Assembly: GCA_004524535.1 (NCBI GenBank)
Contig: SDNY01000083.1
Coordinates: forward strand, 1 to 15,865
DNA length: 15,865 nucleotides
Direction: 5' to 3'
Source of the DNA: Promethearchaeota archaeon
Lineage (GTDB): Archaea > Asgardarchaeota > Lokiarchaeia > Sigyniarchaeales > SOKP01
The notes beneath the pieces are model-generated. The model did not search any database and was not told the origin of the DNA. It saw only the letters and a program-made list of their open reading frames with translations. How positions within the stretch are numbered: the stretch's first letter is position 1; each line of letters starts with the position of its first letter. This document shows, one piece after another, positions 1-15,667 of the stretch. The position numbers were made by a program, and so were the translations under genes.

Positions 1-1070
1 GCAATTTCTAAAGCCAATTCTGGAAAACCTTTTTTTAAGCCTCCTCCTGCTCCACAGCATTTGGCACTTCCCTTAATCGTTTTCATTTCGATTAAATTCG
101 CCAATTTACTTAGCACTTCTCTTGGTTCTTCGTAAAGGGGATTAATTCCTTCCTTCATACCACAATTTCTTCCCGTGTGGCAAGGATCATGATATGTAGC
201 ATTGATGTCTAAATGTTTTAATTGAATATTTTTTTCGTTTATAATATTACGTACAAAATCAACTGTATGGATTATTTCAATACCTAACTCATCAAGATAT
301 TCACTATAATCTGTTTTTAAAGTTCTATAACAACCAGCACAACTTGTAATTATAGTTTTTACTCCACTTTTCTTAAATAATTCGACATTTTTCATAGCAA
401 CAGAATTAAAAGCTTTTCTGTCCCCGGTTCTCATAGCAACACTCCCACAGCATACTTCACGCTCTCCAAAAACAGAAAAATCCACTCCCAATTTTTTAAG
501 AACCTTTGCTGTATTCACTGCCACTGGTTGAATATCTGGAGTTAAAGCGGCAGTACATCCAACAAAATATAGAACATCTGCTTGCTCAGAATTCGCATCT
601 TTTATTTTAAAATCGAGTTTTTCTATCCAATCGTTTTTTTCTTTATTATCTCGCTGATAAGGATTTAATAACTCAACCATTGCCCGATTCATTGGCACAT
701 GTGCCTCTAAACCGCAGCCAGCATCTACTAATTCGGCTCTTAATGCCTCATAAAAAGCGGCATTATCCATATCATAAGCGCATGCCTCTGCGCAAGCATT
801 ACATGTAGGGCATTGATATATTACCTCTGCCATGTCTTTGCTCAGTTCTAATTTGCCTTGCCAAAGAGATCGAATAATCTGCATTTTTCCCCTACCAAAA
901 AAAGGCTCAAAACCAGATGTGTTTTCTTTGGCCACGCAAACCCCCCACTTAGGGGGATCTGCAGTGTAATCTGTTTGTTCTCTACAATCACCACAGCTTA
1001 TGCATTGCAAAAACATATTACCAAATTTGGCTAAATGCTTATACTTTTCTTTTGGATCAAATACTGTCAT
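1..1070 (-). CDS. CCG-domain (Fe-S)-binding oxidoreductase, HdrD/GlpC/GlcF-like; 3' end runs off the window
   Basis: Not in the ORF track; translated by hand from ATG at 1070: MTVFDPKEKYKHLAKFGNMFLQCISCGDC...GVC...CPTCNACAEAC...YFVGC...EVCCGS...TSCAGCYR...YHDPCHTGR...KCCGAGGG. Two ferredoxin-like Cys clusters plus two CCG domains. The frame stays open to position 1. AGGTGA RBS lies just upstream. Confidence 0.93.
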   Translation of the reverse strand, partial: MTVFDPKEKYKHLAKFGNMFLQCISCGDCREQTDYTADPPKWGVCVAKENTSGFEPFFGRGKMQIIRSLWQGKLELSKDMAEVIYQCPTCNACAEACAYDMDNAAFYEALRAELVDAGCGLEAHVPMNRAMVELLNPYQRDNKEKNDWIEKLDFKIKDANSEQADVLYFVGCTAALTPDIQPVAVNTAKVLKKLGVDFSVFGEREVCCGSVAMRTGDRKAFNSVAMKNVELFKKSGVKTIITSCAGCYRTLKTDYSEYLDELGIEIIHTVDFVRNIINEKNIQLKHLDINATYHDPCHTGRNCGMKEGINPLYEEPREVLSKLANLIEMKTIKGSAKCCGAGGGLKKGFPELALEI

Positions 1071-1082
1071 TTTTTTTATCAC

Positions 1083-2624
1083 CTATTTATAGGGTTCATC
1101 CTCTACTAAGTGTTTTGAAATATCATCCTCATAACTATACATATGAAATTTTTTCGGACTGAGAAGAAAATTTGGATCTACAGTTTTCTTCATATCTTTA
1201 AAAAACTGAGAAAATTCTGGGGTATACGCTCCAGCTTCAACTATAGATTGAGAAATTGCTTCTCCCAACCAATAGTGCGCACCACCATATTGTGTCTGAG
1301 CCCTTAATTTTTTATGCCATAATTTCATAGCAATATCATGTTGTTCATCTGAATTATCTGCATTAAAACCTCCAACAAATACACAATGTCCGTTAGGTAA
1401 TAAGTATATTACCGTAGCGAATAAGGATATGCTTCCTGGAGGAAATTCTCCCCGAAATTTGGCATCAAACTTACCGCTTAATTGTTCTGCATCTGGAATA
1501 TATGATATGGGTATCTTATGGCATGTGGTGCAAGATATTTTAGGAGGTGCTACTGAAATATACTGATTGAAGTAAGTAAAAGCGAATTTATAATCAAAAT
1601 TCCATTCTGTAGATAATGGCTCATCTAAATCGATTTCTTGCCATTCAAAAGGTCTACAAACATTATCTTTGAGCATAATTTCATTCAGTTTTTCCAAATA
1701 CACATCCATAATTCTTTGATCATGTGTTTCCAAACCTATTTGAAATACAGATCCCCTAATTTTAGCTCTTGTTGCAGGTTTATTTTTCGCAATACCTGAT
1801 TTCATTTTTACCACAGGAAGGGGAACTACAATAACATCATGTAGCCCATCAGCTACTTCAGATTGAATCTCGTACAATAATTCATAAACTTTGCTATAGT
1901 CATTTTTATTGAGTATATAACATCTCATTGTTTTTATTGGCGGATCTTTTACTATTCGTAGGAAAGCTTTAGTTTTTATTCCCATCGTTCCTACATCTCC
2001 CATAAAAAGACCCGTAAAATCGGGAGCTACACCATATCGGCAAAAAGGTTTTGCATACTTATTTGCTGCTGATCCTGTTCTTAATATTGTTCCCTCAGGA
2101 TTAGGAAGAACCACCTCTACTCCCAAACATATATCAGGAACTAATCCATATTTAGTTGAGCCGAATCCAGCAGTACTGTTTGATAAACCTCCTCCTACAG
2201 TAGCACTAAAACCACTTCCCGGACCTAAAAAACCAGTTGTCAATCCCTTTTCTGCTAATTTAGAATCCAATTCACCCCAAGTTATTCCACATTCTACTAC
2301 AATATAGTAGTCTTTCTCATTGATTTCGATTATTTTGTTCATTCTAGTAAGATCTAAAAGGATCCCTCCTTCTGAAACAGATCCACCTACAAGATCTGCG
2401 CCTCCGCCTCTAGGGACAATTGGAATCTTATATTTATTTGCAATTTTTACGATCCCAGATACTTCTTCTGTAGTTTCTGGTCGTACTATTATATCAGCCC
2501 ATCTATCAGGAAAAGCAGGGTCAACATTCCGAGAATAAGCTGCTTTCATGAAATCTTTATCAGTAATATAATCTGAGCCTATAACATTTTCAATTTCAGA
2601 ATATGCTTCTTTAATTTTCGACAA
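1083..2624 (-). CDS. FAD-linked oxidoreductase (VAO/PCMH flavoprotein superfamily, GlcD/D-lactate dehydrogenase-like fold), paralog 1
   Basis: 513 aa, TTG start. FAD_binding_4 motifs VRPETTEEV, PRGGG, LDLTRMN, ATVGGGLSN, GTMGI; C-terminal KKTVDPNFLLSP. Confidence 0.9.
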   Translation of the reverse strand: MSKIKEAYSEIENVIGSDYITDKDFMKAAYSRNVDPAFPDRWADIIVRPETTEEVSGIVKIANKYKIPIVPRGGGADLVGGSVSEGGILLDLTRMNKIIEINEKDYYIVVECGITWGELDSKLAEKGLTTGFLGPGSGFSATVGGGLSNSTAGFGSTKYGLVPDICLGVEVVLPNPEGTILRTGSAANKYAKPFCRYGVAPDFTGLFMGDVGTMGIKTKAFLRIVKDPPIKTMRCYILNKNDYSKVYELLYEIQSEVADGLHDVIVVPLPVVKMKSGIAKNKPATRAKIRGSVFQIGLETHDQRIMDVYLEKLNEIMLKDNVCRPFEWQEIDLDEPLSTEWNFDYKFAFTYFNQYISVAPPKISCTTCHKIPISYIPDAEQLSGKFDAKFRGEFPPGSISLFATVIYLLPNGHCVFVGGFNADNSDEQHDIAMKLWHKKLRAQTQYGGAHYWLGEAISQSIVEAGAYTPEFSQFFKDMKKTVDPNFLLSPKKFHMYSYEDDISKHLVEDEPYK

Positions 2625-2691
2625 TTAATCTCACTTATTTTTAGTTTTAAAGTTAATTTAGTTTATTTTTTAAGTTATTTAATTTTAACAC

Positions 2692-4215
2692 CTAATTTTC
2701 TTCTGTTACAATTTTTTTAGAATAATCATAATCATAGCTATACATGTGAAATTTATTTGGACTTAATAAGAAATTTGGATCAACCGCCTTTTTCATATCT
2801 CTAAAAAATCTCATAAATTCTGGAGTGTATGCATCTGCTTCGACAATAGATTGAGAAATCGATTCTCCTAACCAATAATGTATTGCTCCATAACGAACTT
2901 GATGTCTAAGTCTTTTATGCCACATTTTCATGGCGGTCTCACGTTGTTCTTCTACATTATCGGCATTAAATCCACCAACTAATACGCAATTCCCATTAGG
3001 CACTAAAAATATGCACGTTGCGAATAAAGACAAACTTTGAGGAGGGAATTCATTTTTGAATTTAGAATCAAAATTAATACTTTTTTTTACAGCATTTTCT
3101 AGAAATGAGATCGGTACTTTATGACATGTCGTGCACGATATCTTTGGAGGTTGAATGGAGATATATTTATTGAAATAATTATAAGCATATTTTAAGTTAA
3201 ATTTCCAATCATCGGAAGAATCAAGGCTTAGGTCAATTTCCTGCCAATCAAATGCTCTGGCATCATCTTTCATTATTTCCTCCACCTGTTCGACATAAAT
3301 CTCTAAAATGCGTTCATTAAAAGCTTCAAGAGTCAAATTAAACACGGGCCCTCTTATTTTTGGCCTTTTATCCGGTTTTTCTTCTGCCATGCCTGATAAA
3401 AATTTTACCACGGTAAAAGGGACTACTATACAATCATGCAAACCATCCCCAACTTTTTCTTTTAATTCATGCATTAGCTGAAAAACTTTATTGAAATCAT
3501 TTTTATTCATGATGTAATCTTTTTTTACTTTAAATGGAGCATTAGGAAATAATTTCATGAAAGCCTTAGTTTTAATACCCATTGTTCCTACATCTCCCAT
3601 GAACAAGCCGGTAAAATCTGGAGCAAGACCATAACGGCAAAATGGAGCTGCATACCTGCTTGCCGCTGAACCTGTTCTTATTATTGTTCCTTCAGGATTA
3701 GGAAGTACTGCTTCCACTCCTAAACACACGTCAGGAATCGTTCCATATTTAGTAGATCCAAATCCAACGGTTGCATTTGAAAGCCCTCCGCCTATTGTAG
3801 CTGAAAAACCGCTTCCAGGTCCCAGAACTCCGGTCGTTACTCCTTTGAGATGTAATTCTGAGACCAAATTTCCCCAAGTAATTCCACATTCCACTTCGCA
3901 ATAGTAATCATCTTCGTTAATTTCAAGGATTTTATTCATTCTTGTAAGGTCAATGAGAATTCCTCCTTGAGTTACAGAACCACCAACTAGATCAGCCCCT
4001 CCACCTCTTGGAACCATATGGATTTTATATTTATTAGCAATCTTAACAATTTCGGAGACTTCTTCAGTTGTTTCTGGTCTTACTATCATTTCCGCCCATC
4101 TATCAGGAAAAGCAGGGTCGACATTCCGAGAATAAGCTGCTTTCATAAAATCTTTATCGGTAATAAAGTTGGGGCCGATAATATCTTCAATTTCCTTATA
4201 CGCATCTTTTGACAA
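2692..4215 (-). CDS. FAD-linked oxidoreductase, paralog 2
   Basis: 507 aa, TTG start. Same motifs and colinear with paralog 1 over the full length. Confidence 0.9.
   Translation of the reverse strand: MSKDAYKEIEDIIGPNFITDKDFMKAAYSRNVDPAFPDRWAEMIVRPETTEEVSEIVKIANKYKIHMVPRGGGADLVGGSVTQGGILIDLTRMNKILEINEDDYYCEVECGITWGNLVSELHLKGVTTGVLGPGSGFSATIGGGLSNATVGFGSTKYGTIPDVCLGVEAVLPNPEGTIIRTGSAASRYAAPFCRYGLAPDFTGLFMGDVGTMGIKTKAFMKLFPNAPFKVKKDYIMNKNDFNKVFQLMHELKEKVGDGLHDCIVVPFTVVKFLSGMAEEKPDKRPKIRGPVFNLTLEAFNERILEIYVEQVEEIMKDDARAFDWQEIDLSLDSSDDWKFNLKYAYNYFNKYISIQPPKISCTTCHKVPISFLENAVKKSINFDSKFKNEFPPQSLSLFATCIFLVPNGNCVLVGGFNADNVEEQRETAMKMWHKRLRHQVRYGAIHYWLGESISQSIVEADAYTPEFMRFFRDMKKAVDPNFLLSPNKFHMYSYDYDYSKKIVTEEN
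4121..4167. repeat. 47-bp sequence identical to 5748-5794 (3 mismatches to 2524-2570), in the 5' ends of the flavoprotein paralogs
   Basis: acattccgagaataagctgctttcataaaatctttatcggtaataaa read directly at both positions. Confidence 0.9.
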
Positions 4216-4315
4216 TTAATCTCACTTCTTATTGGATATATTATTCAAATCTCTTATTTAATTATTAAATTTAATTTAATATATTAATCTAAGCATATTG
4301 GTCAATGCCTAATTT

Positions 4316-5842
4316 TCATTCATCTTTAACAATATGCTTTGAAATATCGTCGTCATAACTATACATATGGAACTTTTTTGGGCTTAGAAGGAAATTTGGA
4401 TCAACCGTCTTCTTCATATCCTTAAAAAATTGAGCAAATTCCGGTGTATAAGCACCAGCTTCTACTATTGACTGTGAAATTGATTCGCCAAGCCAATAAT
4501 GAGCCCCACCATACCGTACTTGGGCTCTTAATTTCTTATGCCACATATCCATCGCAATTTTTCGCTGATCGTCTCGATTAAAAGCAGTTAACCCCCCTAC
4601 AAAAACACAATGACCATTAGGTAATACGTATATAACCGTTGCCCACAGGGATATGGCTTTCTCAGGAAATTCTTGCCGAAATTTTGCATCAAACTGTGCA
4701 GCTGCTTCTGCTCCTTCTGGAATGAATGATATCGGTACTTTATGACAAGTAGTAAGACTTATCATACCGGGCATAATCCCTATATATTTGTTGAAATAGT
4801 GAAAGATATTCTTTAGTATTATCTCATTTTCTTGCCTCTCCTCAATACTTGCATCTATTTCTTGATATTTAAAAATCCGACAAACATCATCTTTTAACAT
4901 GATTTCCTTGACCTTTTCTTCGTATAACTCTAAAATACGTTCATCTGATGCCTCCAATGATACCCCAAAAGCTGATCCCCTAATCCTTAGTCTTTTTTTA
5001 GGTTTTTCCTTTGCCATTTGTGCCAGCATTTTAAATACCGTGTGAGGAAGTATAGCTAAACTGTTTAATCCATCTTTAACTTCAGTTTGCAATTTATGAG
5101 TTAGTTCCGTTACTTTATTCCAGTCGTTTTTATTGAGCATGAAATTTATCGACTTTCTATATGGTTGAAGAGGAAACAATTTTAAATAGGCTTTAGTCTT
5201 TATGCCCATCGTGCCTACATCTCCCATAAAGAGCCCAGTGAAATCAGGAGCAACCCCGTACCTACAAAATGGTTTCGCATATTTATTTGCCGCTGCACCG
5301 GTTTGCAGAATTGTTCCTTCTGGATTGCATAATACCACTTCTACTCCTAAACATATATCTGGAACTAATCCATATTTAGTTGACCCTGCTCCAGCTGTGC
5401 TATTCGAAAGTCCACCTCCAACTGTCGCAGAATATCCCGATCCCGGACCAAGGACTCCCGTTGTTAGCCCTCTTTGATGTAATTCGGAAACTAAAGCCCC
5501 CCATGTAATACCACATTCAACAACACAATAAAAATCGGTTTCATTAATTTCTATGATATTATTCATCCGAGTGAGGTCCATCAAAATCCCCCCCTCTGAG
5601 ACCGAACCTCCAACTAAATCAGCTCCTCCGCCTCTTGGAACTATCGTGATTTTGTATTTATTGGCAATTTTAACTATATGAGAAACTTCTTCAGTAGACT
5701 CGGGTCTCACAATCATATCAGCCCATCTGTCTGGGAAGGCAGGATCCACATTCCGAGAATAAGCTGCTTTCATAAAATCTTTATCGGTAATAAAATCTGA
5801 ACCGATTATGTCTTCAATTTCCTTATAGGCATTTTTTGACAT
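4316..5842 (-). CDS. FAD-linked oxidoreductase, paralog 3 (first gene of the cluster)
   Basis: 508 aa, ATG start. Same motifs; the cap domain is the most divergent of the three. Confidence 0.9.
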   Translation of the reverse strand: MSKNAYKEIEDIIGSDFITDKDFMKAAYSRNVDPAFPDRWADMIVRPESTEEVSHIVKIANKYKITIVPRGGGADLVGGSVSEGGILMDLTRMNNIIEINETDFYCVVECGITWGALVSELHQRGLTTGVLGPGSGYSATVGGGLSNSTAGAGSTKYGLVPDICLGVEVVLCNPEGTILQTGAAANKYAKPFCRYGVAPDFTGLFMGDVGTMGIKTKAYLKLFPLQPYRKSINFMLNKNDWNKVTELTHKLQTEVKDGLNSLAILPHTVFKMLAQMAKEKPKKRLRIRGSAFGVSLEASDERILELYEEKVKEIMLKDDVCRIFKYQEIDASIEERQENEIILKNIFHYFNKYIGIMPGMISLTTCHKVPISFIPEGAEAAAQFDAKFRQEFPEKAISLWATVIYVLPNGHCVFVGGLTAFNRDDQRKIAMDMWHKKLRAQVRYGGAHYWLGESISQSIVEAGAYTPEFAQFFKDMKKTVDPNFLLSPKKFHMYSYDDDISKHIVKDE

Positions 5843-7877: not shown

Positions 7878-8258
7878 ATGAGTGATAAGAAATTTATTGT
7901 ACAAATAGGAAGTGGTGTCGATCAGCATGGACATAATAATGACTGCACTAATGCTTCGATAAAGGCAATTAAAAATGCAATATCTAACAATTGTTTATGT
8001 GGATTATCGGATATATGTGGGCTTAAGGAACCTAAAGACTTTATGCGTATGAAGGTACACGTGAAGATTGGAGCTCCTTTTCCTGAAAATATAGATAATA
8101 AGAAGATATTAAAAGCGATTCCGTTTGGAGTAAAATCAATCGAGCTAGTAAAAGGGGGACTTGTTGCCCAAGGTATTATGATTAAAGAATTAGGCGATAC
8201 CTCAGATAATATGATTATATGTAATGCTGCGGTAACTGTATCTATAGAATCATCTTAA
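7878..8258 (+). CDS. Lin0512-family protein (function unknown)
   Basis: 126 aa; GSGVDQHG...TNASIKAIKNAI, VHVKIGAP, IPFG, VKGGL, NAAVTV. Its stop shares TTAA (8255-8258) with the convergent arfB stop. Confidence 0.85.
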   Translation: MSDKKFIVQIGSGVDQHGHNNDCTNASIKAIKNAISNNCLCGLSDICGLKEPKDFMRMKVHVKIGAPFPENIDNKKILKAIPFGVKSIELVKGGLVAQGIMIKELGDTSDNMIICNAAVTVSIESS

Positions 8259-8953
8259 CTATATTTTAGAAAATAGCTTCCAATACAAGATTTAATTTTT
8301 TCGATTAAAGTGTTAAACCATATTTCTCCTTTTTTAGGAGTTGCGTGATATGGATCTCCTAGAATTCCCGATTTACTTAAGTTAATGGTTTCCCAATTTT
8401 TTAGCTTTTCTTTTTTATAATTTGGATCTAATTCAGGTATATATGTTACATCGCTTTTCTTTAAATTACTCAAGAAAACTTTTTCTGGATAAAGATATAA
8501 CATAATTGATGTTTCAAACTCTCCCGCATGACAAATACCGCCGATATCAGAAGTTCTTATTTTTTCTAGATCTTTTTTAATTAACGAAAATGTATTTAAG
8601 ACTAAGATTTTTTTCTTGTATAATTTTTGAATTGATTTTAATGTATCTATATTGCCACCATGAGCATTTATTATAATGAATTTATAATTATTTGGATAAT
8701 TTTTAATTATTCCTTCAATTTGAGAAATAAATTCCTTTTGAGAAATTGATTTTGTATTCTTAAATCCTTCGTGCTCGGGGGATATCCCTATTTTTATACT
8801 CTCAATACTCATACCTTTAAAAACTGGAGATATTTCTTGAGCAATACTTTTCGCTATTAGATAATCTGTATCAGGTGGAAGATGAGGTCCATGGTACTCA
8901 TAGCTACCACACGCTACCTGAACGATGTACCGTTTATTTTGTTTTTCACTCAT
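8255..8953 (-). CDS. arfB: Creatininase-family protein, probable FAPy deformylase (2-amino-5-formylamino-6-ribosylaminopyrimidin-4(3H)-one 5'-monophosphate deformylase)
   Basis: GSYEYHGPHLPPDTD, GISPEH, NAHGGN, HAGEFETS, GILGDP. Lies directly downstream of GTP cyclohydrolase III, which supports ArfB by context. Confidence 0.75.
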   Translation of the reverse strand: MSEKQNKRYIVQVACGSYEYHGPHLPPDTDYLIAKSIAQEISPVFKGMSIESIKIGISPEHEGFKNTKSISQKEFISQIEGIIKNYPNNYKFIIINAHGGNIDTLKSIQKLYKKKILVLNTFSLIKKDLEKIRTSDIGGICHAGEFETSIMLYLYPEKVFLSNLKKSDVTYIPELDPNYKKEKLKNWETINLSKSGILGDPYHATPKKGEIWFNTLIEKIKSCIGSYFLKYS

Positions 8954-9063
8954 TTCTTTTTACCCAAATTTTATTTTTTGTTTTAGTAAAAAAAGAAGTA
9001 TTCTATTTTGAAAATAGCTATAAAAATAAAATTATTCAAGAAAATCAAAAAAAGAATATTTAT

Positions 9064-9819
9064 CTAATTGATAACAACTACTTTTTCTTTATTATTTCCT
9101 TCTCTTATTCTCTTCAAACAAATATTTGCTTTAGAGAGTGCTTCAAGTATATTTTGTCCTTCACCAATGCCGGCTTTTAATTTCCATGGTTCGTGCTTAG
9201 ATTCAAATTCCATTATTATCTTTTCTATGTCTCGAGTTAGCATTGAATTTGGGCAAATGCAAATAAAATTATCTCCTCCATTGAAAAAACATAATGCCCC
9301 TATTTTTTCAAAATTCTCCATTAATGTTATATAACTTTTATTCAAATTTAGAAAATTAGTGTAAAAGGGGTATACATCTGTATTTATCTTAGTATAGAAA
9401 TTTATATCAACATGAGCTATTTTAACTTTATTTTTAACTGGCAACGTATGTCCGTTATATGCGAGCACTTTCTTTCTTGAAGATTGAGCGCTTCCATGCA
9501 AAATTAAAGCTTTCGATGCATCAATTTGAGCTTCTAATGGAGTATTTCCTACTCCAATTCCCATACTAATGGTAATGGGGAAATTCTTTTCTATTTCATC
9601 AATTATTTCCCTGTGTTTTTCAATAGAAATTCCATTTGAGACCGCAATCATATTATCTTTTAAAGCAGAAAATACAAGACCTTCGTGCTGATTAAAATAC
9701 TTTTGTAAGAAAATGAATATTTCAGAGAGTAGTATTTGAATTTTATGTTCTCGATTATCACCCATTTTCTCTGTAAAGGGTCCAAAATTATCAATTTGAA
9801 TATAGGTTATTTGAATCAA
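9064..9819 (-). CDS. gch3: GTP cyclohydrolase III (IIa)
   Basis: MIQITYIQIDNFGPFT, DNMIAVSNG, TPLEAQ, IAHVDIN, FFNGGDNF, LKAGIG. TTG start with GAGG RBS. Confidence 0.93.
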   Translation of the reverse strand: MIQITYIQIDNFGPFTEKMGDNREHKIQILLSEIFIFLQKYFNQHEGLVFSALKDNMIAVSNGISIEKHREIIDEIEKNFPITISMGIGVGNTPLEAQIDASKALILHGSAQSSRKKVLAYNGHTLPVKNKVKIAHVDINFYTKINTDVYPFYTNFLNLNKSYITLMENFEKIGALCFFNGGDNFICICPNSMLTRDIEKIIMEFESKHEPWKLKAGIGEGQNILEALSKANICLKRIREGNNKEKVVVIN

Positions 9820-9829
9820 TAATATAACC

Positions 9830-10264
9830 TCATTTATTCTTAGACGTTTTTATTCTTTTCACCATTTTTACAACACATTCTACTGAACGACGAGCAAAAT
9901 CTTCGATCCGTTCTACTGCTTCAACTCTTGTCATTCCTGGACCTGAAACACCTAAAGCAACAGGTTTACCATACTCTAAAGATAAATCTACCATTTTTCT
10001 TGCAGCATGTTGGGCAACTACTTGATCATGATCGGTATCACCCTTTATTACAGCACCTAAACATACTACACCTTCAATATTATCTTTAGTAAGAAGCGTT
10101 TTTATTGCTAAAGGCATATCAAAACTCCCTGGAACTTTGAAAACTTCTGACACATTACATCCTAAAAATTCAGCATGCTCAATAGCCTTGTTGAGCATGT
10201 TTTCAGTAATGTCATAATGAAATTCTCCAACAACTATACCAATATTAATTTTATTTTCACTCAT
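9830..10264 (-). CDS. ribH: 6,7-dimethyl-8-ribityllumazine synthase
   Basis: [38 protein letters not shown]. Confidence 0.96.
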
Positions 10265-10276
10265 TTTTTTTCCTTT

Positions 10277-10750
10277 TTATGATTTAATTGGCCCGGCATC
10301 TGGATATCCTTGTCTTAATCCTTTTCCAGCATTTTTTTCGAGCCATTCTTTATCAAATAATAATTTTATCACATTTTGAGCGTGTTCTCGCGCTCTATTA
10401 TCACATACTTTAATTAATTCTTCTGGCGTTTCAGCCTCGTCTTCATGAACAAAACATTCAATTATGTGTTTTCCAGTCATTAATTGACACATTATTATAC
10501 CTTGACTTGCTTCATGAGCACATATTTTATCTATTTCAGCGGCTCCTGGCATTCCAAGTGCTATACACATTTCGCAATTATGTTGATCAAAGAGAATCTT
10601 GCATGCAACGGGTAGATCCTTCATACCTGGAACAGTATATCGAATTAATCTCATTCTACTCGTTACATTTTCAATTTCATCGATTGCCATCGCACCCATA
10701 TCAACTCGTGCAAATGTTGTATCCGCAATACCAACGTTTATTTTACTCAA
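10277..10750 (-). CDS. ribC: Archaeal-type riboflavin synthase
   Basis: GIADTTFARVDMG, RYTVPGMKDLPVA, FVHEDE, GKGLRQG. Start placed at TTG 10750 because AGGTGA lies at 10755-10760; the ORF track start at 10765 is the alternative. Confidence 0.95.
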   Translation of the reverse strand: MSKINVGIADTTFARVDMGAMAIDEIENVTSRMRLIRYTVPGMKDLPVACKILFDQHNCEMCIALGMPGAAEIDKICAHEASQGIIMCQLMTGKHIIECFVHEDEAETPEELIKVCDNRAREHAQNVIKLLFDKEWLEKNAGKGLRQGYPDAGPIKS

Positions 10751-10754
10751 TTTT

Positions 10755-11471
10755 TCACCTTTCAAGAAAATTACTATAGGCCTTTAAGATTTGATTTCCT
10801 TCAACCATTACTAAATTATAGTTTTTTGCATATTCTTTTGCTTGAGAAATTGAAAGGGCCTTTCCTGTTTTCCCATCTAACATTTCACATAGAACTGAGA
10901 CGGGAGAAAGTCCTCCCATATATGCCAATGTGACAGTTAATTCTGTATGCCCCACTCTTCCCTTTACTAAATCTTTATTTGCAATCAATAAATGTGTATG
11001 ACCAGGAGCCCTAAATTTAGAACCAAAAAGATTCTGATAATTTTTAATGCTTCCTCCATTTCGGAACACTTCTGTGCCAAGTAAACCAAATTCTCTAATA
11101 GTTAAAGCACGATCAATATCCGTGATACCCGTGTAAGTATCAACATGATTAATAGTTACAGAAAACGATGGTTTATCTCCATATGGAGCGACAATATCGG
11201 GAGCTATTTGGTTAAAAATTGAATATTGCTCTAAAACATTTGAATAAATTTCTGCCATGAAAGGTAATCCTAATTTTTCCGCAATATTAGCATGCATAGC
11301 AATGCAAATTAACCCTCCAGCATCATGACGTAAATGATAGATATGTTTTGGTGTTACTTTTTCGGCTAAACAAACTAAATCTACTTCCTCTTCTCTACCA
11401 TCGATATCATAAACTAATACAAATTTTCCTTCCGCAAGGTTTTTTATTGCTAAGCTTATATTTTCATCCAT
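10755..11471 (-). CDS. ribB: 3,4-dihydroxy-2-butanone 4-phosphate synthase, archaeal type
   Basis: DIDGREEEVD, GGLIC, FSVTINH, TGITDIDRALT, FRAPGH, RVGHTE, CEM. ATG 11471 is preceded by AAGGAG; TTG 11489 is the alternative. Confidence 0.95.
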   Translation of the reverse strand: MDENISLAIKNLAEGKFVLVYDIDGREEEVDLVCLAEKVTPKHIYHLRHDAGGLICIAMHANIAEKLGLPFMAEIYSNVLEQYSIFNQIAPDIVAPYGDKPSFSVTINHVDTYTGITDIDRALTIREFGLLGTEVFRNGGSIKNYQNLFGSKFRAPGHTHLLIANKDLVKGRVGHTELTVTLAYMGGLSPVSVLCEMLDGKTGKALSISQAKEYAKNYNLVMVEGNQILKAYSNFLER

Positions 11472-11521
11472 ATAGAACTCCTTTTTCAAAGATATTTTAT
11501 TCCTAAAAGAAAAAGAGATTT

Positions 11522-11734: not shown

Positions 11735-13084
11735 TTATTTCAATATCTTTTTTTCTTTTGCATCTAAATCGAGCCAGTCACTCACATTTTTAAGTTGTCG
11801 TCGTGAAGTGCTACATAAAATCTTTAAAAACGGAATAAAATCTTGAATTGCTTCGATTTGAGATATCTCATAGGTTTTATTAATTTTATCGATTAAACTC
11901 CTTTCAGCATTCGTTAAAGAAAAAGCACCCCCTACAACATATCTTGGAAATGTAACCCTTCGAAAACCACTAGTTTTCCGGGATTGAGCCAGACTGGTCC
12001 CTCCTGCGAATAAATCATAGAAATATGGCAATAACGCCCAATATTGATTTCTTCGAATCCGTCCAAAAATTTCATCAGCCAAAGAGAGATTATCGTATGC
12101 ATTTGCTATTTCTTTATTTATTTTAATGAACGAGATGAGATTTTCATTTACCCATTTGTATAAAAAATTATAATCTACATCGGATTTATCTGTTAAATCT
12201 CGAGCTTCTCTTAGCGTAGAAACGTTTTGAAATAAATCTCTAATTAAGGCAAAAATCTCCTCTGTGGTATCTCGATGTAAACTAAATATTAAATCTTTAT
12301 TATCTACTTCAGTTGAGCCTTGAGCAATTCCTTGGATATCGTTAATAACGCCTCTTAAATCACCATTATTTTTCTTAACGATAAGATCCAAATCGCCCCT
12401 TTTAAGATTTGTAATATTTTCTTTTTTGAGAATGTTATGAGCAATTTTTATCACTTCGTCGTCGGAAAGTGGATAAACCTCGAACTTTCGAACTTTATTA
12501 TAGAGCGGTTGAAGATTTTGTTTATATTCATTTGAACACATAATAATTGGAAATTGAGTGCTCTGAATTAAATCTAAGATAGTAGGAACCGCACCCCTAT
12601 CTTTCGTTCCATATATGCCATCAACTTCATCAATTAAGATAAGCTTTTCTTTTGATTGAGTAACAAAATCCATAATTCCCCGAGATTTAACAGTTTCCCT
12701 TAATTTATTTTCGAGAGCATCTCTTGTTCGAGTATCAGAAGCATTTGTCTCAATCACTTCCATATTTAAATCGTTTGCTAAGGCAAAAACAATGGAAGTT
12801 TTTCCAATCCCAGGTGGTCCTTCTAATAATACTGCTGCTTTTTCAGGTGCTATTTTTACTTCTTCTTTCCTTTCTTTTTCGGAGGCAGTTCTATTATATA
12901 CTCTTATAATTTTATTTTCAGCATTTATTCTTTTCATCTCTTTGAAAAAGTTTTTTACAAATTTCGTTAAATCTTCTGCTAAATCAACTTTATGACCGCT
13001 AACCTTAGCTGTTGGGAGAGCCATTTCTCTAATGCTTTTCGGTCGATACTCCTCGACCCAGACAGATTTAACTTTTTTAGCCAT
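11735..13084 (-). CDS. rfcL: Replication factor C large subunit
   Basis: WVEEYRPKS, Walker A GPPGIGKTS, ETNASDTR, Walker B ILIDEVDG, GDLRGVIND, YWALLPY. Start is ATG 13084 or GTG 13093. Confidence 0.93.
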   Translation of the reverse strand: MAKKVKSVWVEEYRPKSIREMALPTAKVSGHKVDLAEDLTKFVKNFFKEMKRINAENKIIRVYNRTASEKERKEEVKIAPEKAAVLLEGPPGIGKTSIVFALANDLNMEVIETNASDTRTRDALENKLRETVKSRGIMDFVTQSKEKLILIDEVDGIYGTKDRGAVPTILDLIQSTQFPIIMCSNEYKQNLQPLYNKVRKFEVYPLSDDEVIKIAHNILKKENITNLKRGDLDLIVKKNNGDLRGVINDIQGIAQGSTEVDNKDLIFSLHRDTTEEIFALIRDLFQNVSTLREARDLTDKSDVDYNFLYKWVNENLISFIKINKEIANAYDNLSLADEIFGRIRRNQYWALLPYFYDLFAGGTSLAQSRKTSGFRRVTFPRYVVGGAFSLTNAERSLIDKINKTYEISQIEAIQDFIPFLKILCSTSRRQLKNVSDWLDLDAKEKKILK

Positions 13085-13099
13085 TTTTTTCACTACTAT

Positions 13100-14179
13100 T
13101 TATGATAAATGCTCTGAAAATAAGCATATTTTTGCTAATAATGCTGATATTTGTATATCCGAATCTAGACCATCAATCGCGCGGAAATCAGCATCAGCAA
13201 TTAAATTAATCAATTGGATACGGGCAAATTTACTTAATGGGAGTTTATTGAGTTCATTAAGTAGCAGATTAAAAAGTTCATGTGGATTATATTTATAATT
13301 AGAGATAATATTACGCGATAATTCTCTTGCTTTTGGAAAGTCTCCTCTTAAAGTCATCAATAATAAGCTTCCTACCAAATCGTTTTGAAATTTTTGAGCA
13401 ACTTCATATAGAATATTTTTAGTTATTTTTTTTTCATCTAGATTATTTTTAGTTAATTTTTTTCTTCTTATACTTGATAATTGTAATATATCAATCGCTC
13501 TGGATATATTTCCGTTAGAAACTTTATAAAGTATTTCTATAATACCATCCTCCATTTCTAAAGATTCATTATTAGCAATTTTATTCATTAATTCTTTAAA
13601 GGAGTCAAGATCTACTTGAGAAATTAAAAATAATTGGCACCGACTCACAATTGGGTCAATTACTCCGGAAATTTTAGTGGTTATCAAGATCATTCTACAA
13701 TTTGAACCATAAATTTCCATTAACCTTCTAAAGCCCTGTTGATTCGACCCTAAAGTCTCAAAATTTTTAACGATCAAGATTTTGAAAGGGGCCTCACCTA
13801 AGACTTTTAATTGAACGAAAGGTTTAACTTTAACTTGGATAAATGCTGGTGTTGTAATTCTCTTTCCAGCTATGCTCCCTATTTTACTCGTTGAGACGTA
13901 TGCTTCAGCCCTTGCTAACTTTCTTTCCTCCTCTGTTAACGGAACATTAGCGTAAATTAATTTAAAATTCGCATCGTAAAATCTGCCAAGAAATTCTTTT
14001 GAAAATAAACTTGCTAAAGTAGCTTTTCCAATACCTTCAGAACCTACAAATAAAAGATGAGGAAAATTTCCCTGCTTAATGATACTTTTTAATCTTTCCT
14101 TTATTTTCTCTCTTCCACAAACTTCATCCAAGTTTTTTGGTAAATATTTGATTCTCCAAATTGGAATTTCATTATTCAC
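13100..14179 (-). CDS. Divergent second RFC small subunit (RfcS2-like, degenerate ATPase motifs)
   Basis: WRIKYLPKNLDEV, FPHLLFVGSEGIGKAT, QQGFRRLME, IDPIVSRC, C-terminal collar ADADFRAIDGLDSDIQISALLA. GTG start with GAGG RBS. Confidence 0.88.
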   Translation of the reverse strand: MNNEIPIWRIKYLPKNLDEVCGREKIKERLKSIIKQGNFPHLLFVGSEGIGKATLASLFSKEFLGRFYDANFKLIYANVPLTEEERKLARAEAYVSTSKIGSIAGKRITTPAFIQVKVKPFVQLKVLGEAPFKILIVKNFETLGSNQQGFRRLMEIYGSNCRMILITTKISGVIDPIVSRCQLFLISQVDLDSFKELMNKIANNESLEMEDGIIEILYKVSNGNISRAIDILQLSSIRRKKLTKNNLDEKKITKNILYEVAQKFQNDLVGSLLLMTLRGDFPKARELSRNIISNYKYNPHELFNLLLNELNKLPLSKFARIQLINLIADADFRAIDGLDSDIQISALLAKICLFSEHLS

Positions 14180-14189
14180 GTTATTTTCC

Positions 14190-15173
14190 TCATTTATTTA
14201 CTTGATTTATAATTTCAGCTACTAAAGCTAATATCTGAATTTGATCGTCTGCTCCTTGGCTTATTTTGTAATCAATATCTCCAAAAAAGGCAAGTAAAAT
14301 ATTAAGAACATTAGGCTGTAAATTAATTCTTGGCAAAATTCCTATAAGTTGTCTGATTAAATTTCTGCTGTCATATGTTTCAATAGAGTTCACAATTTTT
14401 CTAGCTCCTTTAAAATCTTTAGCTTGAAATACTTCAATAAACTTCTCTAAAGTTTCTTGATCCATGAATCCGGAGATTTTTAAAATTTCATTAACATCTA
14501 AATTCTCTAGCAAATCAAGAGCAACAGACATTTGCAACGTATTTATTGCTTTTCTTAAATCTCCCGCTGAAATAAAGAATAATGTATCAAAAAATAATTC
14601 CGATTTATCTTCAGGAATAGATAAATTTTCTTGCTTAGCAATATATTTTAATCTTTCTACAATTTTCTCCTTAGGAAGGTTAACAAACCTGAAAACAGCA
14701 CATCGCGAGATTATCGGATCTATGATTCTATTTATATAATTGCACATTAGAATAAATTTTACTTTTGTTGAGGCTCTTTCCATAATACGCCTAAGAGCTT
14801 GTTGAACTTGATTTGGAATGTTATCAGCTTCGTCTAAAATGACAATTTTTAAAGAATCTTTCTTTCTGATAATCATATTTTGATTTACGAAATCTTTTAT
14901 AACGCTTCTTACATAATCCATCCTTACAGTATCAGAAGCGTTTAATTCTAAAAGATCTCTATAATAATTTTCTCCTTTTAACATTTCTTTTGCTATAATT
15001 AACGCAGCACTTGTCTTCCCAGTGCCTGCCGGACCCGTAAAAATCATATGAGGCATATTGCCTTTTTTTATAAAGGCTTTTAAACTATTTATTGCAATGT
15101 TTTGACTCACAATATCATCAAAACTCTTAGGCCTATATTTTTCAACCCAAGGGATCCTTAAGTCAAGAGTCAT
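14190..15173 (-). CDS. rfcS: Replication factor C small subunit
   Basis: PWVEKYRP, GPAGTGKTS, ELNASD, ILDEAD, QQALRRIME, SRC, GDLRKAIN; all canonical motifs intact. Confidence 0.96.
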   Translation of the reverse strand: MTLDLRIPWVEKYRPKSFDDIVSQNIAINSLKAFIKKGNMPHMIFTGPAGTGKTSAALIIAKEMLKGENYYRDLLELNASDTVRMDYVRSVIKDFVNQNMIIRKKDSLKIVILDEADNIPNQVQQALRRIMERASTKVKFILMCNYINRIIDPIISRCAVFRFVNLPKEKIVERLKYIAKQENLSIPEDKSELFFDTLFFISAGDLRKAINTLQMSVALDLLENLDVNEILKISGFMDQETLEKFIEVFQAKDFKGARKIVNSIETYDSRNLIRQLIGILPRINLQPNVLNILLAFFGDIDYKISQGADDQIQILALVAEIINQVNK

Positions 15174-15193
15174 ATTTATATTTCCTAATAAAT

Positions 15194-15667
15194 TTAGTCG
15201 TTAGCAAAATCTTTCGTGAGGTCTAATTCTAAGACTTCGTATATTTTTTTAAATCCCATTTCTCCGTAAAGATTTGAGGCTTTCAAAGCTTCTTCTTGAA
15301 TATTGACTTTAACTTTTTCAACCTTAATTTTCTTCAAATGGTTGAGAGCTTTTTGTAATAAAACCTCTCTTACACCTTTACTTCTATAATCCTCCATTAA
15401 AAAAAATTGTTTAATATATCCTTCAGACAAACCAAATGGATCTATTCGAAGCTCTACTATAATCATACCAACTGGTTTATTTTTATCCTCTTCGATCGCA
15501 ATAAAAATTCCATTACATTGGAGAGGATCATACAATCTGCGACGAATTCCCCAGTCGAAACGCTTAGGATCAAATTTTTGTCCCATACTTTCTGTTATTT
15601 CTCTCGTAAAATCCTCTAACGCGTTTATATGCTCTGGAGAAGCGATTTCAACTTTAATATTATTCAT
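15194..15667 (-). CDS. GNAT-family N-acetyltransferase
   Basis: 157 aa; IFIAIE...PVGMI...GYIKQFFLMEDYRSKGV...LL, LYGEMGF. Confidence 0.85.
   Translation of the reverse strand: MNNIKVEIASPEHINALEDFTREITESMGQKFDPKRFDWGIRRRLYDPLQCNGIFIAIEEDKNKPVGMIIVELRIDPFGLSEGYIKQFFLMEDYRSKGVREVLLQKALNHLKKIKVEKVKVNIQEEALKASNLYGEMGFKKIYEVLELDLTKDFAND

Follow-up and report, generated by a model that had tools for sequence, protein, structure and literature searches.

The replication factor C (RFC) clamp loader of most archaea is built from one large and four identical small subunits, and that of eukaryotes from five different subunits, among which subunit E is catalytically dead. Here we analyse a 15,865-nucleotide (nt) stretch of DNA, referred to throughout as the window (positions 1 to 15,865 of contig SDNY01000083.1, assembly GCA_004524535.1), from a Promethearchaeota archaeon of the order Sigyniarchaeales, class Lokiarchaeia, and within it rfcS2, a gene for an unusual RFC small subunit (P0001) that lies on the minus strand at 13100-14179 and translates, from a GTG start, into 359 amino acids (aa). 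We consider it likely, with good confidence, that RfcS2 is the non-catalytic E-position subunit of a single pentamer made of RfcL, RfcS1, RfcS2 and RfcS3, to which it would contribute an arginine finger in trans and an insertion in the chamber.

An E-like RfcS2 within a four-gene, eukaryote-like Lokiarchaeal clamp loader is already known, having been described and partly tested biochemically in 2025 (PMC12680538). Feng et al. (2025, Nat Ecol Evol) report an rfcS3-rfcS2-rfcL operon in Lokiarchaeales with rfcS1 located elsewhere, and an RfcS2 that possesses Walker A and an arginine finger, lacks Walker B, is 'akin to the eukaryotic RfcE', and has, where the E-plug would be, an inserted segment that folds into a helix (PMC12680538). 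Tags placed on RfcL and RfcS1 of Candidatus Harpocratesius repetitus, followed by sequential His/Strep purification, yielded all four proteins, and AlphaFold3 puts RfcS2 opposite RfcL at a ratio of either 1:2:1:1 or 1:1:2:1 (PMC12680538). A 2026 review repeats this account of a four-protein Lokiarchaeal RFC (PMC12993045). The first-pass annotation of the window had cautioned that publications on expanded Asgard RFCs might already exist, which is correct, and had proposed a dedicated E-position subunit, which is the published reading for the orthologues (PMC12680538).

P0001 is an orthologue of the Lokiarchaeales RfcS2, with which it shares the gene order, the lost Walker B, the kept Ser-Arg-Cys (SRC) motif, the helical insertion and an RfcL partner devoid of an arginine finger; it departs from the published protein in that its Walker A reads GKAT instead of the consensus, and in having 10 additional residues from a 30-nt duplication (PMC12680538). 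As a complex with a dedicated dead subunit, the Lokiarchaeal RFC represents a living intermediate and bears on the way in which heteromeric replication machines came about before the last eukaryotic common ancestor. This point is already in print, and the window supplies one more well-assembled example. What it adds is the selection regime acting on rfcS2, a recurrent loss of the Walker A threonine that amounts to a natural experiment on the need for E-site nucleotide, a polymorphism in the linker between lid and collar, and an ATPase-intact relative, labelled Thorarchaeota, that helps to order the evolutionary steps.

In the window, rfcS2 is the middle one of three close-packed minus-strand genes spanning 11735-15173, and the features that surround it are as follows.

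14190..15173, minus strand: rfcS3 (P0002), 327 aa, a canonical, ATPase-competent small subunit with GTGKTS, ILDEAD, SRC and GDLR
11735..13093, minus strand: rfcL (P0003), 452 aa, the large subunit, with GIGKTS and LIDEVD and without SRC
14187..14191, minus strand: GAGGA, situated 7 nt ahead of the rfcS2 GTG and sharing letters with the stop codon of rfcS3

Both neighbours reach their NCBIfam cut-offs, rfcS3 just above that of the rfcS model NF001679 (307.5 bits; cut-off 303) and rfcL above that of NF003229 (289.4 bits; cut-off 280), so that the location of rfcS2 between a canonical rfcS and rfcL, as initially annotated, holds. Intergenic gaps measure 10 nt between rfcS3 and rfcS2 and 6 nt between rfcS2 and rfcL, and among relatives the medians are 13 nt for the former (27 loci) and 7.5 nt for the latter (30 loci). 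In each of the 30 loci fetched, rfcL directly follows rfcS2, the rfcS2 reading frame is unbroken and rfcL is without SRC; rfcS3 lies upstream in 28, the two remaining contigs beginning at rfcS2, and the ATPase motifs of rfcS3 are unchanged in 27/27 orthologues. The GAGGA sequence at the rfcS3 stop codon suggests translational coupling of rfcS3 and rfcS2. No RNA data set was listed as containing 11735-15667, a result that bears neither way on expression.

When P0002 was used as a query against the assembly to which the window belongs (3.66 Mb in 198 contigs, 99% complete), a further canonical small-subunit gene, rfcS1, was found on contig C129, whose 323-aa product is 39% identical to P0002 and carries GTGKTT, ILDEADN and SRC. 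This gene (L002 1486-2457) is situated away from the operon, beside a 282-aa open reading frame (ORF) on the opposite strand, and the order rfcS3-rfcS2-rfcL with rfcS1 elsewhere is thus that of the Lokiarchaeales RfcS2 system. Because of rfcS1, the RFC system comprises four genes rather than three, and the term 'three-component' clamp loader, used in the first-pass annotation, has to be given up; the orthologous system likewise co-purified as four proteins (PMC12680538).

The ATP site and the arginine finger of P0001 were compared across an alignment of 121 sequences, i.e., P0001 and the best 120 database clusters listed, and in a separate set of 29 orthologues from genomes spanning the order. 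The relevant positions are the following.

14018..14044, minus strand: P-loop GSEGIGKAT, residues 46-54; Lys52 is kept and the magnesium-ligand Thr is replaced by Ala53
13757..13780, minus strand: former Walker B ILIVKNFE, residues 134-141, with Lys138-Asn139 in place of Asp-Glu
13724..13729, minus strand: R151-R152 of the central helix, present in 121/121 homologues
13679..13681, minus strand: sensor-1 position, Thr167 instead of Asn (MILITTK, compared with FILMCNY in rfcS3)
13637..13645, minus strand: SRC in the translation, residues 179-181, with R180 as the trans-acting arginine finger

In addition, GNIS at residues 223-226 replaces the GDLR of rfcS3. Translation thereby confirms, at the positions listed, the four degenerate motifs recognized at first pass (GKAT, ILIVKNFE, a missing sensor-1 Asn and GNIS for GDLR) as well as the retention of the SRC finger and of the central-helix RR. 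The combination of a lost Walker B and a kept arginine finger is that of the Lokiarchaeales RfcS2, and the residues concerned are close to fixed: K138 occurs in 118, N139 and F140 in 121 and T167 in 120 of the 121 homologues, while S179, R180 and C181 are each found in 121/121 homologues and 29/29 genome orthologues. In none of the 29 genome orthologues is there a Glu at the catalytic position or a sensor-2 Arg at the aligned position.

The Walker A motif behaves differently. Lys52 is universal (121/121 homologues, 29/29 genome orthologues), and the family-majority motif is GKTT, so that P0001 with GKAT fails the Walker A consensus while retaining the glycines and the Lys. Position 53 is T in 106, A in only 14 and S in 1 of the 121 homologues, counts at odds with the earlier notion of GKAT as a defining feature; of the 29 genome orthologues, 22 have T, 5 have A and one each has M or L, a pattern requiring five parsimony changes on their tree, and the equivalent P-loop Thr of rfcS3 is invariant (27/27). 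Judged from these alignments, GKAT is a local and recurrent loss of the Walker A Thr and no family trait, and such recurrence suggests that magnesium coordination in the RfcS2 pocket is no longer selected.

Other variants of the site occur among relatives. One genus of the order (L031 1465-2508, L034 1486-2529) has an RfcS2 with IIDDFH at the Walker B site, Asp being present, combined with a P-loop reading GKME or GKLE, i.e., a different route to a dead site. In another order of the same class, an RfcS2-like gene that adjoins rfcL (L048 2942-4030) has YEAD at the Walker B site and both an in-frame TGA and ~9 extra residues inside the P-loop; a defective gene, recoding or a fault in the assembly could each account for this.

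Two further features set P0001 apart in length.

13841..13954, minus strand: insertion, residues 76-113, with a predicted helix at 83-93 followed by a conserved, low-confidence loop containing GSxAG
13403..13463, minus strand: in-frame tandem duplication of 30 nt, two copies 90% alike, around residues 238-248, adding 10 aa to the lid-collar linker

In a phmmer alignment with Pyrococcus furiosus RFCS, residues 8-75 and 114-354 of the query match residues 15-82 and 93-324 of the chain, and the net insertion is hence ~28 aa; the first-pass annotation had rightly seen an insertion and put its size at ~25 aa. G101, S102, A104 and G105 within it are each conserved in 121/121 homologues. The predicted structure of RfcS2 (mean predicted local distance difference test score, pLDDT, 85.5) shows the insertion as helix 83-93 plus a low-confidence loop, and this modelled helix, together with a single-stretch alignment to RfcE detailed below, places a helix-forming insertion at the E-plug site, as in Lokiarchaeales RfcS2.

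The duplication is found in P0001 alone among the 121 homologues (P0001 plus the best 120 listed) and lies in a linker that is modelled with low confidence (residues 241-250 average a pLDDT of 61). A contig from sequencing run X3, a sediment sample of a different study, lacks exactly 30 nt at 13437 and differs at 32 letters over 13083-13732 (~95% alike), and a run that may be the source of the assembly is identical to the window. The 30-nt duplication is specific to the strain, and makes the length of the lid-collar linker polymorphic at the level of strains. Contigs of runs X2 and X3 also span the Walker A codon; none of the differences listed for them falls on it, but 59 more lie beyond the listing, and no conclusion is drawn.

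On the reading we prefer, these features would work together as follows. The genes rfcS3, rfcS2 and rfcL would share a transcript and probably be coupled in translation, and their products would join that of the separately encoded rfcS1 in a single pentameric clamp loader, an assembly taken from the literature (PMC12680538). RfcS2 would occupy the last, E-like position and face RfcL over the DNA-entry gap, as in the AlphaFold3 models (PMC12680538). With Lys-Asn for Asp-Glu, Thr for the sensor-1 Asn, no sensor-2 Arg and, in P0001, Ala for the magnesium-ligand Thr, its pocket would be non-hydrolysing. Since the P-loop glycines and Lys are invariant, this pocket probably still holds nucleotide or phosphates in a structural capacity, as eukaryotic RfcE holds GDP; the E site of yeast RFC is catalytically inactive, binds GDP and probably has a structural role (PMC12646322). 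The invariant R180 of SRC would complete the site at which the adjacent subunit in position D, either RfcS3 or RfcS1, binds ATP, and the insertion, with its helix and GSxAG loop, would project into the DNA-binding chamber, where it may gate the entry of DNA similar to the role proposed for the E-plug.

The likeness to eukaryotic RfcE (yeast Rfc5, human RFC3) extends to a catalytically inactive site with a P-loop Lys, a retained arginine finger, an insertion of matching length at the same place and, for RfcS2, a predicted position opposite the large subunit (PMC12680538). Among eukaryotic chains, those of RfcE alone are aligned by the rfcS2 family profile without a break at the insertion (profile 6-245 with chain 2-243), B, C, D and archaeal chains all being split around it. 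Differences are that RfcE is the weakest sequence match and not the best fold, and that the insertion is without sequence match and predicted as helix plus loop, as opposed to the beta-hairpin of the E-plug.

Several results weigh against assigning RfcS2 to the E position, or against a single loader. By sequence, no RFC small subunits match RfcS2 more weakly than E chains do, and its closest solved relative is not an E chain: in phmmer, P0001 matches archaeal RFCS at 2.3e-45, yeast Rfc2 at 2e-26 and RfcE at 2e-15 to 7e-15, and the rfcS2 family profile scores archaeal RFCS at 249 bits, C and D chains at 141-148 bits and E chains at 97-105 bits. Fold comparisons (Foldseek, VIA-align) likewise rank B, C and D chains above E chains, with Z 26.6, a root-mean-square deviation (rmsd) of 12.2 Å and 316 residues for B chains and Z 23.4, rmsd 9.7 Å and 308 residues for E chains, although the lower rmsd is that of the E chains. 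Residues 60-135 alone returned no match among PDB sequences at E ≤ 10, and the helix-plus-loop prediction for the insertion counts on the same side. The affinity between RfcS2 and RfcE is a claim of PMC12680538; there, assembly was demonstrated with the proteins of another species expressed in E. coli, and sections 9-10 of that article report no loading or ATPase assay. Finally, the window's genome encodes two divergent PCNA-like proteins, which leave room for a specialised loader. Nor does the rfcS3 profile favour a link to RfcE, which it scores at 106-116 bits, similar to the 97-105 bits of the rfcS2 profile. A complex prediction for RfcS3 and RfcS2, with a score of 0.02 against a mark of 0.32 and controls not folded, speaks neither for nor against binding.

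The PCNA-like proteins are the starting point of a different explanation, namely that RfcS2 and RfcS3 serve in a second, specialised clamp loader that shares RfcL or uses RfcS1 as its scaffold and loads an alternative clamp in place of the replicative PCNA, like the eukaryotic alternative RFCs. Besides a canonical PCNA on contig C72, the genome carries genes for proteins of 393 and 398 aa (L084 303-1484 on C45; L085 1021-2217 on C65), each with an N-terminal extension of ~100 aa, in which PCNA_N is above its cut-off and PCNA_C is weak; these two are possible alternative clamps. It further suits this explanation that one large and four small subunits suffice in most archaea while a canonical rfcS1 is retained here, and that a Thorarchaeota-labelled paralogue, taken up below, is encoded beside a gene for an XPB/Rad25-type helicase instead of rfc genes. 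Yet the small-subunit query found a single rfcL in the genome, and this lies inside the rfcS3-rfcS2 operon; moreover, all four proteins of the orthologous system were obtained when RfcL and RfcS1 carried the tags for sequential purification (PMC12680538). We therefore regard a separate loader as unlikely and retain the single pentamer.

Bacterial delta-prime (HolB) offers a parallel, being a non-hydrolysing E-position subunit that supplies a trans-acting arginine, Arg158, named as the arginine finger (PMC11044049). Profile matches between it and RfcS2 are weak (E 6.6e-12 to 5.5e-11) and far under cut-offs; what the two proteins share is a role rather than a family. The RfcS2 orthologue P0104 bears the source label 'DNA polymerase III delta prime subunit', an automatic label that happens to suit the proposed role.

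P0001 belongs to the RFC small subunits in the broad sense. It exceeds the Pfam cut-offs for Rep_fac_C (39.2 bits; cut-off 23.6) and DNA_pol3_delta2 (34.6 bits; cut-off 27), has the collar domain and the clamp-loader AAA+ module, and its model aligns over the full length to RFC chains (Z 23-27). A canonical archaeal RfcS it is not: the match to NF001679 (E 3.8e-65, 220.1 bits), broken into two parts with the insertion left out, stays below the cut-off of 303, and an intact Walker A, Walker B and sensor-1 Asn are missing. Identity to P0001 is 69-92% in at least 120 database clusters (the best 120 being listed), and 98 of the 121 aligned homologues are 348 aa long. Among the matches listed, homologues at 70-76% identity are mostly labelled Promethearchaeota or Lokiarchaeota archaeon, with few Hod-, Hermod- or Thorarchaeota labels.

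A specialised small subunit, RFCS2, that ends the small-subunit chain of a three-protein RFC has also been described for Methanosarcina acetivorans and haloarchaea (PMC2880001), and kinship with it had been considered at first pass. RfcS2 of the window might thus belong to the euryarchaeal RFCS2 family by descent or transfer, its resemblance to RfcE then being convergent. Each is a specialised small subunit that occurs in single copy and has a long branch, and the euryarchaeal rfcS2 model NF009067 aligns P0001 in a single stretch (residues 6-351). By profile score, however, P0001 reaches 176.1 bits against a cut-off of 317, no better than canonical copies (in the genome scan, rfcS2 175.4, rfcS3 183.3 and rfcS1 175.8 bits), and the system here has four genes; membership of this family was rejected on these scores, and we rate common membership as very improbable.

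Scores below both NCBIfam equivalog cut-offs (NF001679 and NF009067) could also be expected of a decaying or neutrally drifting duplicate without a role in clamp loading, as could the losses at Walker B and at sensors 1 and 2, the repeated loss of the Walker A Thr and the 30-nt duplication. This is contradicted by the selection regime. Ratios of non-synonymous to synonymous substitution (dN/dS, NG86), computed for the same genome pairs, are 0.05-0.21 for rfcS2, 0.06-0.16 for rfcS3 and 0.07-0.13 for rfcL, indicating that rfcS2 is under purifying selection like its two neighbours; relaxed selection, named beforehand as an outcome that would speak against a functional E subunit, is not seen, and a pseudogene is ruled out by these values. 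Mean column identity of rfcS2 is 61%, equal to that of rfcS3, replacement residues such as N139 and F140 are fixed, and the intact frames (30/30 loci) and wide occurrence described here fit neither decay nor drift, which we consider hardly credible.

As for occurrence, an rfcS2 orthologue scoring at least 200 bits is present in 35 of 40 relatives, the next class of matches, canonical paralogues, scoring at most 120 bits; the five relatives without an orthologue are 71-88% complete genomes. A profile built from the 29 rfcS2 orthologues (A1) was then run over 301 genomes of the phylum. At 355 bits or more, it detected rfcS2 in 65/69 genomes of the window's family and in 6/7 of a second family of the order, and in none of the 225 genomes outside the order.

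Outside the order, the A1 profile finds its best matches (~175-220 bits, aligned without a break at the insertion) in two families (f11 and f30), whose paralogues (L041-L047, e.g., L042 3250-4377) are 370-377 aa long and have an insertion at that site too, but a longer one. Most of their database relatives bear a Thorarchaeota label, and the gene resides near an XPB/Rad25-type helicase gene, outside an rfc operon. Like RfcS2, with whose clade they group, these paralogues carry the insertion at that site; unlike RfcS2, they have intact Walker A and Walker B (LDEADAL) motifs, often SRS in place of SRC, an insertion ~20 aa longer and no rfc operon.

An IQ-TREE phylogeny was computed from 57 rows (14 RfcS2, 14 RfcS3, 8 RfcS1, 7 paralogues with the insertion and 14 other Asgard RfcS); a further row was left out as truncated, and three rfcS1 loci had no ORF that passed the filter. 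RfcS2 forms a single clade (support 100/100), and RfcS2 plus the insertion-bearing paralogues are separated from all canonical copies with 99/99 support (SH-aLRT 98 without the insertion columns), a grouping that may reflect long-branch attraction. A sister relation of RfcS1 and RfcS3 (97/93 in the full tree) was not recovered without the insertion columns and is not adopted. Since an ATPase-intact relative has an insertion at the same site, the insertion probably predates the loss of the ATPase motifs, provided that the root lies among the canonical copies.

Combining this order with the Walker A data, a more far-reaching proposal would be that RfcS2 has a dead pocket that is still losing parts, operating free of magnesium or binding no nucleotide at all, together with a chamber insertion older than the death of the ATPase. 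Seen from sequence comparisons, this conjunction is a tentative possibility that we hold to be rather doubtful. If true, an RfcS2 without nucleotide would be a delta-prime-like stator that arose inside an RfcE-like clade, and an insertion that came before ATPase death would show in which sequence the steps towards the eukaryotic E subunit took place.

The remainder of the window contains genes of other functions. Upstream of rfcS3, at a distance of 20 nt, is a gene for a GNAT acetyltransferase (15194-15667), and a similar ORF of 152-161 aa adjoins rfcS3 in several related loci (e.g., L007, L008, L018, L031). Immediately downstream of rfcL lies an archaeal riboflavin gene cluster (8255-11489) encoding DHBP synthase, two proteins of the DMRL-synthase fold, GTP cyclohydrolase III and a creatininase-family protein. 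At the far end (3-5842), three tandem paralogues of 507-513 aa with a FAD_binding_4 domain are followed by a CCG/4Fe-4S protein, an arrangement reminiscent of a triplicated gene set of the glycolate or lactate oxidase type.

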